Of a stretch of DNA of 12,511 nt, positions 7,639-8,276 are shown in pieces. Position 1 is the first letter of the stretch; the number at the start of each line of letters is the position of its first letter. The stretch lies in the IMG/VR virus record IMGVR_UViG_3300031669_003253. One strand, given 5' to 3'. The position numbers and the translations under genes are program-made. This DNA is from a virus. The notes under the pieces were generated by a model. That model had not been told where the DNA came from. It ran no database searches and was given only the letters and a program-made list of their open reading frames with translations.

Positions 7639-8232
7639 TCAGTCGTCCTTCGCCGGTGCCCCACTCGGTCCGAGAATCACCTTCTCGTCGGGCACAGACA
7701 GCCCGACATCTTCGGAACGCTGCTGGTCCATGAGCCGTTGCGTCTGCGCTCGCTGAACGCGCTGCGCCCGGATCGAGAACTGCCCGACGACCTCCTGGTC
7801 AATGAGGCCGAGGATGTTGTCCTCGTTGACGAACAGGAAGTGCTCGGTGCCGAGTCCTTCGGGATCGCTCCACTCGTAGGTCACCTCAGCATTACGGGGG
7901 TTGGCCACGACCGTGTCACCCCTACGGTACCGCGTGGCCTCCGGCCCGGCGTCGATCACAGTGAGGATCGGGCACTGATAGCCCCCAGGTCCTCCGGTCT
8001 GTGTCGGCACGATCAGACCCTGCCTGGAGAAGAATTCGATCGGCTTCACCCAGAGGATCAGGTACTTGCCCGTGGGCACGAACGGGCACTCGCCCCGGCC
8101 GAAGAGTCGCGGGCCGCATGGGCCATCCGGATCGGGGGCCACAGGGTCCTGTGACCAGCGCGGGTCGCCCTCGCCCCATTCTGCGTCGACTGGTTCTTCC
8201 GCCGTGTTCAGATCAGCTGCTTCTTCGTTCAT
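7639..8232 (-). CDS. GroES/Cpn10-like co-chaperonin domain protein (197 aa) with an acidic N-terminal extension and a C-terminal tail
   Basis: Residues ~56-140 align by eye to GroES. [42 protein letters not shown] matches [84 protein letters not shown] matches [38 protein letters not shown]. ATG 8232 has AGGAGGA 6 nt upstream. Confidence 0.55.
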   Translation of the reverse strand: [197 protein letters not shown]

Positions 8233-8250
8233 TGTGTCCTCCTGGAAGTA

Positions 8251-8276
8251 GGGGGTGTCGGTTTCCCGACACCCCC
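8251..8276 (-). other. intercistronic GC hairpin between the MVP-like gene and the GroES-like gene
   Basis: gggggtgtcgg-tttc-ccgacaccccc is a perfect 11-bp stem with a 4-nt loop. It lies in the 60-nt spacer between the MVP stop (TAG, 8293..8295) and the SD/ATG of the next gene. No U-tract follows on the minus strand. Confidence 0.55.

Follow-up and report, generated by a model that had tools for sequence, protein, structure and literature searches.

What does a GroES-like gene do behind the gene of a major vault protein (MVP), and does it serve that protein? The question is raised by a 12,511 nt stretch of phage DNA with 62% G+C (IMG/VR record IMGVR_UViG_3300031669_003253), hereafter named the window and taken at its whole length, in which the minus strand carries nearly all credible genes. 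Over 6.5 kb, the window is 99.7% identical to a second IMG/VR contig, IMGVR_UViG_3300031565_005203. The gene in question, the last cistron of its unit, occupies 7639..8232 on the minus strand (stop codon included), encodes a protein of 197 aa and begins 60 nt downstream of an MVP homolog. An earlier note on this DNA had described its product as a GroES-like co-chaperonin, i.e. a Cpn10 relative, and as a folding or assembly factor dedicated to MVP, with a hairpin between the two genes that could set their stoichiometry. The arrangement itself, a 197-aa open reading frame (ORF) immediately downstream of the MVP homolog with a hairpin in between, was borne out by the ORF, the MVP match and the fold analysis.

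Since profile-profile comparison, a bridging protein and two structure models all agree on a Cpn10-type core, we conclude that amino acids 50-145 of the protein, a predicted beta-barrel (7798..8085, minus strand), are best read as a domain of the Cpn10 superfamily, divergent and built in the manner of gp31. The protein belongs to a family of 15 protein clusters. When the profile of this family was compared by hhalign with five canonical GroES sequences, a probability of 88% was obtained (E 3e-6, 83 columns), and an enlarged 15-member alignment gave 86% (E 4.7e-6, 83 columns); the aligned span pairs amino acids 50-144 of the GroES-like protein with GroES residues 2-95. Against T4 gp31, the match covered the N-terminal half only (E 2.5e-4, 43% probability, identity about 16-18%).

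The bridge emerged when 1.8 billion representatives were scanned exhaustively by HMMER for the family profile: six family representatives were returned, and with them a 119-aa protein, P0013. Its match to the profile, at E 4e-4, runs over amino acids 50-146, and P0013 itself clears the gathering threshold of the Pfam Cpn10 model (PF00166), with 25.1 versus 21.1 bits. The window protein stays short of this curated threshold; within the family, the best scores are those of P0005 (16.4 bits) and P0004 (13.8 bits), both sub-threshold, and their matches extend over the whole or nearly the whole model. Remote homology to Cpn10 is found over the whole domain, by hhalign and through P0013. Two AF2 structure models of the GroES-like protein, matched against PDB and BFVD, agree with a Cpn10-type core, and present the GroES beta-barrel fold as a stand-alone domain. 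Named entries among the top 50 BFVD matches are mostly phage co-chaperonins GroES, with one gp31-type head assembly chaperone, and true co-chaperonins, rather than ADH-type domains, head both the structural and the profile matches.

The hhalign alignment places the strands of the protein on those of GroES, as shown by the motif pairs YLILWVKP/RVIVKRK, RGDTVV/VGDIVI and NILGLID/DILAIVE (GroES-like protein/GroES). Residues invariant in the family fall on Cpn10 signature positions: P53 on P5, G72 on G24, G96 on G44, and G105-D106 on G62-D63. The mobile-loop equivalent (amino acids 64-86; 7975..8043, minus strand) was located by hhalign and has low predicted local distance difference test (pLDDT) values in both models (50-64 in the deeper one). 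The Cpn10 strands announced by the earlier note were therefore recovered in this alignment, but its placing of the loop motif was not: the motif is Q71-G72-L73-I74-V75, and not the GGPGG at 80-84. G72-L73-I74-V75 aligns to GroES G24-I25-V26-L27. The pattern G-[LFV]-x-[IVL] is present in 15/15 family members, with an invariant Gly and a few polar residues at the second position, and it is retained in members only 26-34% identical to the window protein. The GroES-like protein thus has a flexible loop bearing Gly and three hydrophobic residues, the key conserved feature of viral GroES mobile loops (PMC5649160). Two further traits are of the gp31 type: the roof beta-hairpin of GroES is missing (a 9-residue gap opposite GroES residues about 47-55 in the hhalign alignment), and the mobile loop is 4-5 residues longer than in GroES.

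The unusual N- and C-terminal extensions pointed out earlier are real, and the alignments find both conserved across the family. The N-terminal one (amino acids 1-49; 8086..8232, minus strand, delimited by alignments) has an acidic start followed by conserved E18-W19, D23, W26, R46, C49 and P50; amino acids 20-50 have pLDDT values of 75-86 in the deeper model, and the extension is predicted to pack on the core. The C-terminal one (amino acids 146-197; 7642..7797, minus strand, delimited by AF2 secondary structure and alignment) consists of a long helix (146-177) and a conserved tail, which reads L-x-V-P-x-E-K-x-I-L-G-x-x-G-x-P in the window protein and (E/K)-(V/I)-(L/V)-D-x-T-G-x-P-x-(S/T)-K in distant members. 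No known counterpart was matched to either extension.

The ORF is a real coding gene under purifying selection, given its G+C content at codon positions 1/2/3 (0.70/0.46/0.77), the share of synonymous changes (113 codons differ from the orthologue in the related locus L004, 50 of them synonymously and 63 non-synonymously) and the presence of orthologues in 15 clusters. It starts with the ATG at 8232-8230, preceded at 5 nt by a Shine-Dalgarno sequence GGAGG, read from the sequence (8238..8242, minus strand), which is the same in L004 and replaced by GGAGA in a second related locus, L024. Two ORFs on the opposite strand, 7396-8154 and 7457-7756, were ruled out as genes: both codon-position G+C and conservation favour the minus-strand frame.

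What might such a protein do? T4 gp31, whose structure is PDB entry 1G31, and RB49 CocO are phage co-chaperonins for host GroEL. By analogy, we somewhat favour the idea that the GroES-like protein is a highly divergent, phage-specific Cpn10 member built like T4 gp31 and acting as a co-chaperonin on host GroEL. During infection, it would replace host GroES as the ring that caps GroEL, and the folding chamber so formed would suit phage proteins of large size, the major capsid protein among them. G72-L-I-V, on its long flexible mobile loop, would be the motif docking on GroEL, and the family-specific extensions would sit at the rim of the ring, where they may touch GroEL or a client at a second site.

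The likeness to gp31 goes beyond the fold. In both proteins the mobile loop is extended, with a hydrophobic tripeptide after S/T-x-G (TESGLII in gp31, SRQGLIV in the window), a VGPD...GD segment is found, and the roof hairpin is missing; both proteins come from phages with a T4-type portal, where their genes lie apart from those of the head. In contrast to the 197 aa of the window protein, gp31 has 111 aa and lacks the conserved N- and C-terminal extensions. With the GroES/Hsp10/Cpn20 proteins of PF00166, the window protein shares the profile match over GroES residues 2-95, the signature Pro, Gly and Gly-Asp, and the loop motif. It differs from them by scores below the Pfam and NCBIfam thresholds, the deleted roof hairpin, a loop longer by 4-5 residues, an insertion of ~8 residues with a conserved E-W-x-D-P, and ~100 extra residues in total.

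A third term of comparison is given by the viral GroES clusters of Marine et al. 2017 (PMC5649160). This study reports that phages with a co-chaperonin gene alone are common, and that several viral GroES clusters lack the roof hairpin, like gp31; its viral metagenomic GroES proteins, of about 85-155 aa, had been collected on the strength of BLAST or CDD matches to Cpn10. The window family shares with these clusters the conserved loop Gly followed by three hydrophobic residues and, with some of them, the missing roof hairpin, and many of the top BFVD matches stem from such data. Unlike them, it evades BLAST/CDD-type recruitment and has long conserved extensions. Phage co-chaperonins being well known, what the window family would add is a new, extended branch of the GroES/gp31 group. 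The family is unseen by Pfam, NCBIfam and PHROGs, so that profile-based surveys of viral chaperonins miss such members.

Several results weigh against a co-chaperonin of the gp31 type. Searched against Pfam, the GroES-like protein had no match, even at E <= 10. The earlier note had proposed a search with the Cpn10 hidden Markov model (PF00166), and had named the lack of a hit as an outcome that would speak against its reading; taken literally, this is the outcome obtained, so that the GroES-like identity stands for the core by hhalign, P0013 and the structure models, but not by the search first proposed for it. The NCBIfam GroES models did not match the protein either, and no co-chaperonin was matched in PHROGs, the sole match there being a meaningless 31-aa stretch (E 0.002). 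A ten-sequence family profile run against PDB sequences had Cpn23 as its best match, at a non-significant E of 0.11; a significant Cpn23 match appears only when P0013 is included in the profile. The reference sequences used with hhalign (GroES set and gp31) were entered by hand. The family motifs NPRN-E, W121 and D123-P124 are strongly conserved and have no Cpn10 counterpart. Genome-contig scans, with the loop motif and with family motifs, returned no host and no prophage copy of the family, and no capsid gene is present in the window and the examined flanks, where only Portal_T4 and terminase were seen. The quaternary structure is a further concern. The subunit interface of GroES is made by its two termini; the equivalent terminal strands are present in the GroES-like protein, and both bear extensions. 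Large conserved extensions at both termini, the N-terminal one predicted to lie on the core, could alter or prevent the heptamer. Finally, the role given below to the intercistronic hairpin is read solely from its position and conservation.

Other searches were silent. A five-sequence family profile had no match among PDB sequences, and megablast of the region against GenBank phages had none either. Iterating the family profile over a set of 5.8 billion proteins added five more unannotated members and no annotated GroES, and a metagenome scan for the family returned only contigs already known.

The main rival explanation, which we consider somewhat unlikely, accepts the GroES fold and denies the GroEL lid: the protein would act as partner or effector of the co-translated RHH regulator, take part in the virion or its assembly, or block host GroEL where a lid would assist it. 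The failure of the curated Cpn10 models speaks for it, as do the large conserved extensions with their family-specific motifs. So does the tight overlap of the gene, in lineages devoid of MVP, with a small gene of the RHH (CopG/Arc) type. Against it stands the nature of the best structural and profile matches, which are all true co-chaperonins as described above; moreover, the docking motif is correctly placed in the flexible loop and is conserved at 26-34% identity, and the BFVD matches show that stand-alone proteins of such size are typical of phage GroES. A co-chaperonin for host GroEL thus remains the reading that we prefer.

We now turn to the gene neighbourhood. In the window, the RHH gene (10955..11254, minus strand) was identified by weak RHH matches, and its ORF overlaps the start of the MVP gene. 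In all lineages, the gene located upstream of the GroES-like gene is this one. In one clade, comprising the window, L001-3, L011, L013-14, L004 and L024, the order is RHH, MVP, hairpin, GroES-like; MVP, hairpin and GroES-like gene follow each other in three sublineages of this clade. Relative to the window, the GroES-like and MVP proteins are respectively 64% and 73% identical in L004, and 60% and 66% in L024. Among phages of the GroES-like family, MVP was found in the window clade only. Five divergent lineages, those of P0005 (the 152-kb contig JBFOMY010000180.1), P0006, P0007, P0008 and P0009, have no MVP within the available flanks, which reach at most 10 kb per side and far less on several short contigs. 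There, the RHH gene runs straight into the GroES-like gene, the two overlapping or lying within a few bases where both were called, and RHH orthologues are directly upstream of the GroES-like gene in L005, L006, L009, L020 and L021. Where contigs are long enough, the MVP-less neighbourhoods are syntenic, with Portal_T4, PDDEXK_15, a small NrdD-like gene and the RHH gene; the neighbourhood of the P0005 lineage also contains a terminase with a LAGLIDADG intein.

Because the RHH and GroES-like genes overlap or abut in the MVP-less lineages, MVP appears to be the newcomer. The parsimonious scenario is a single insertion of MVP, together with its 3' hairpin, between formerly coupled RHH and GroES-like genes: the pair would have been split in one clade of phages with a T4-like portal. 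Gene order thus indicates that the GroES-like gene predates the MVP insertion. The locus would then be a natural example of a large cellular-type gene inserted between coupled phage genes, with a downstream gene still to be expressed, which makes it convenient for studying how downstream expression persists.

Between MVP and GroES-like gene lies the hairpin AGGGGGUGUCGG-GAAA-CCGACACCCCCU (8250..8277, minus strand). The earlier note had seen a perfect GC hairpin of 11 bp at 8251..8276; the hairpin is real and perfect, but its stem has 12 bp, 3 of which are A-U pairs next to 9 G-C pairs, and extends over 8250-8277. With its GAAA loop it folds at -26.3 kcal/mol (z = -6.5), and it is one of only two perfect hairpins of at least 12 bp in the window, the mean in dinucleotide-preserving shuffles being 0.01. 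It was ruled out as an intrinsic (Rho-independent) terminator: no U-tract follows, the tail reading ACUUCCAGGAGG in the window and GAUGUUUAGG / GACGUUUAGG in L004 and L024, and a terminator scan made no call. It was likewise ruled out as a member of a dispersed repeat, being found in single copy, at the MVP/GroES-like junction only. As an RNase III site it was rejected, a 12-bp stem being too short.

The hairpin is kept in L004 and L024, where one U-A pair has become U.G and the loop GAAA has become GAGA, both loops being of the GNRA class. In both comparisons, the 45-nt window that holds it is the most conserved of the interval from MVP to GroES-like gene, with 93% identity versus 71% overall for L004, and 89% versus 67% overall for L024. 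Intercistronic hairpins acting as stabilisers or attenuators are known, such as the REP elements of malEFG and the hairpins of the puf operon. Like them, the window hairpin is stable, rich in G+C and devoid of a U-tract; it follows the cistron that would be needed in larger amount and precedes one that has no promoter of its own. Unlike REP elements, it is single-copy and not a dispersed repeat. The simplest plausible role for this GNRA hairpin is that of a 3' stabiliser or of a partial attenuator, by which the MVP segment of the mRNA would be favoured.

Alternatively, the hairpin could be the leftover terminator of an imported MVP cassette, or a neutral palindrome, with no present regulatory role. 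The MVP gene of locus L017 also has a strong hairpin after it, so that MVP cassettes may carry one, and the lack of a U-tract fits this view as well. We nevertheless regard it as unlikely, given that the element stands out from its 71% and 67% backgrounds in two independent comparisons, that the changes it did undergo preserve both pairing and GNRA loop class, and that the hairpins after other MVP genes are unrelated to it in sequence.

No promoter-like site was found by consensus scan between MVP and GroES-like gene, and a U-tailed terminator is found only past the latter; on these grounds, the GroES-like gene is inferred to be transcribed by read-through of the 8250-8277 hairpin. The unit would comprise a 155-aa gene, RHH, MVP, the hairpin, the GroES-like gene and a strong terminator. 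Its candidate promoter, TTGACG-16-TACACT (11774..11801, minus strand), lies upstream of the 155-aa gene; it comes from a consensus scan only, and is weaker than promoter-like repeats present further downstream.

At the other end, the unit closes with a long terminator-like hairpin and its U-rich tail (7419..7517, minus strand; arms 7490-7515 / 7429-7454, a loop of ~35 nt, then UCUCUUUAAU). Its loop, CCAUUCUCCGUU(U)CCCACCGCACCUGGGCC, of about 35 nt, is nearly identical in L004 (about 6095-6185) and in L006 (about 10697-10779), and the L006 protein beside it is only 31% identical to its window counterpart. The ~25-bp stem is not the same: its upper part shows three or more double compensatory changes, and its lower part is wholly different. 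No Rfam family, tRNA or tmRNA was recognised in this 3' untranslated region (3'-UTR) element; it was not matched in GTDB genomes, and nothing complementary to it was found in the rest of the window. The 7419-7517 element may be a structured RNA derived from the 3'-UTR, or a site where a protein binds. Directly after the GroES-like stop codon, a first 3'-UTR hairpin, GGACCGACCGG...CCGGUCGGUCC, was found by folding (7567..7633, minus strand); made of an 11-bp outer stem and an inner stem, it is shared with L004 and not with L006. Altogether, the 231-nt 3' region after the GroES-like gene folds at -109 kcal/mol (z -4.7).

Is the GroES-like protein, then, dedicated to MVP? Under this hypothesis, it would be a folding or assembly factor of the phage MVP shell, with the hairpin tuning the MVP:GroES stoichiometry. 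What recommends it is the succession of MVP, a 60-nt spacer with the hairpin, and the GroES-like gene, which three sublineages retain at protein identities of only 60-73%, together with the conservation of the hairpin and a transcription unit which the two genes appear to share. The wider distribution of both genes makes it very unlikely. The GroES-like gene, including both extensions and the RHH neighbour, is present in the five divergent lineages with no MVP in the sequenced flanks, and the overlapping or abutting RHH/GroES-like pairs of these lineages designate MVP as the late arrival. In the other direction, hmmsearch --max detected no family member near three further MVP loci, of which two are on phage-like contigs and one is on the Nannocystis punicea chromosome, and MVP homologs are far more numerous, with >5,500 clusters against 15 for the GroES-like family. 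Two preprints on phage and bacterial MVPs, one of them bioRxiv 10.1101/2023.11.10.566534, give them no chaperonin partner. Co-occurrence of the GroES-like gene with MVP across genomes was thus not found.

The dedicated factor proposed by the earlier note is therefore left unsupported, because the gene occurs with no MVP in the available flanks and MVP loci occur without the gene nearby. The hairpin, for its part, may plausibly set the MVP:GroES-like stoichiometry. Since the GroES-like gene appears older than the MVP insertion, its place beside a phage MVP cannot be taken as a sign of a chaperone specific to vaults. More probably, the protein is a folding helper of general use to the phage, which may count MVP among several clients.

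We also give little credence to an 'adaptor' co-chaperonin that would bring a specific partner to GroEL, docking the capsid protein, the portal or, in the window clade, the MVP shell by its C-terminal helix and conserved tail (..K-E-V-L-D-x-T-G-Q-P-x-S-K.. in distant members), or to a GroEL-independent ring serving as cap or cargo of the phage vault-like particle. If either were true, the GroES fold would gain a new functional class, and a vault homolog of a prokaryote or virus would for the first time have an accessory factor linked to it.

The MVP homolog itself (895-900 aa; 8293..10980/10995, minus strand) most likely starts at the ATG at 10980. Pfam MVP_shoulder matches it with 64.5 bits (threshold 25, E 1e-17), and thousands of proteins, bacterial for the most part and in many cases labelled 'major vault protein' by JGI, align with ~97% of its length at 41-47% identity; more than 5594 homologs were counted at E <= 1e-5. 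These matches indicate a genuine full-length MVP homolog. Phage MVPs had been reported from two human-gut phages linked to a Clostridium sp. contig (bioRxiv 10.1101/2023.11.10.566534), and reports have so far been limited to these two. As there, a full-length MVP homolog is found in a tailed phage; the window differs in being an environmental phage with 62% G+C and a T4-like portal, and in having its MVP gene upstream of a GroES-like gene, whereas no chaperonin neighbour is mentioned for the gut phages.

The remainder of the window, on the same minus strand, contains genes for a PAPS-reductase-like protein (5982-6995, phrog_424), a DUF932 protein (4273-5331), a 506-aa protein (2633-4153, phrog_2319), and an ORF for an HNH/NUMOD4-like endonuclease (786-1235). 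Most of these four have their own copy of a promoter-like repeat. This repeat is present four times on the minus strand (4152-4223, 5370-5427, 7012-7083 and 7341-7412), each time before a gene, and consists of TTGACT (TTGATC in the fourth copy), 16 nt, and TATACT with a TG upstream of it; in three of the four copies, the palindrome GAAAAACTTGTGAAGTTTTTC or a sequence close to it comes next. Together, they probably form a phage-specific promoter/operator family.

Three observations were made on related contigs. In L026/L027 (JGI contig Ga0114919_10000071, 56,556 bp), the MVP/GroES-like region is found at both ends in inverted orientation (1-8826 reversed, and 47731-56556); this duplication probably is a fold-back assembly artefact, the true piece being about half the stated length. 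A LAGLIDADG homing-endonuclease signal is located in the presumed gene of the terminase large subunit (~1000 aa), beside the T4-type portal, in L001 (1-1537), L002 (1-1537) and L005 (946-3975), which suggests an intein in the terminase of related phages. Lastly, a protein of 112-135 aa resembling the C-terminus of NrdD is encoded at 12127-12465 (minus strand) in the window, as well as in L001, L004, L006 and L009. It matches only the extreme C-terminus, with the glycyl-radical motif RIVGYYS (Pfam NRDD, 26.7 bits), and is conserved wherever a related phage could be checked; a free-standing glycyl-radical 'spare part' is what it may represent.

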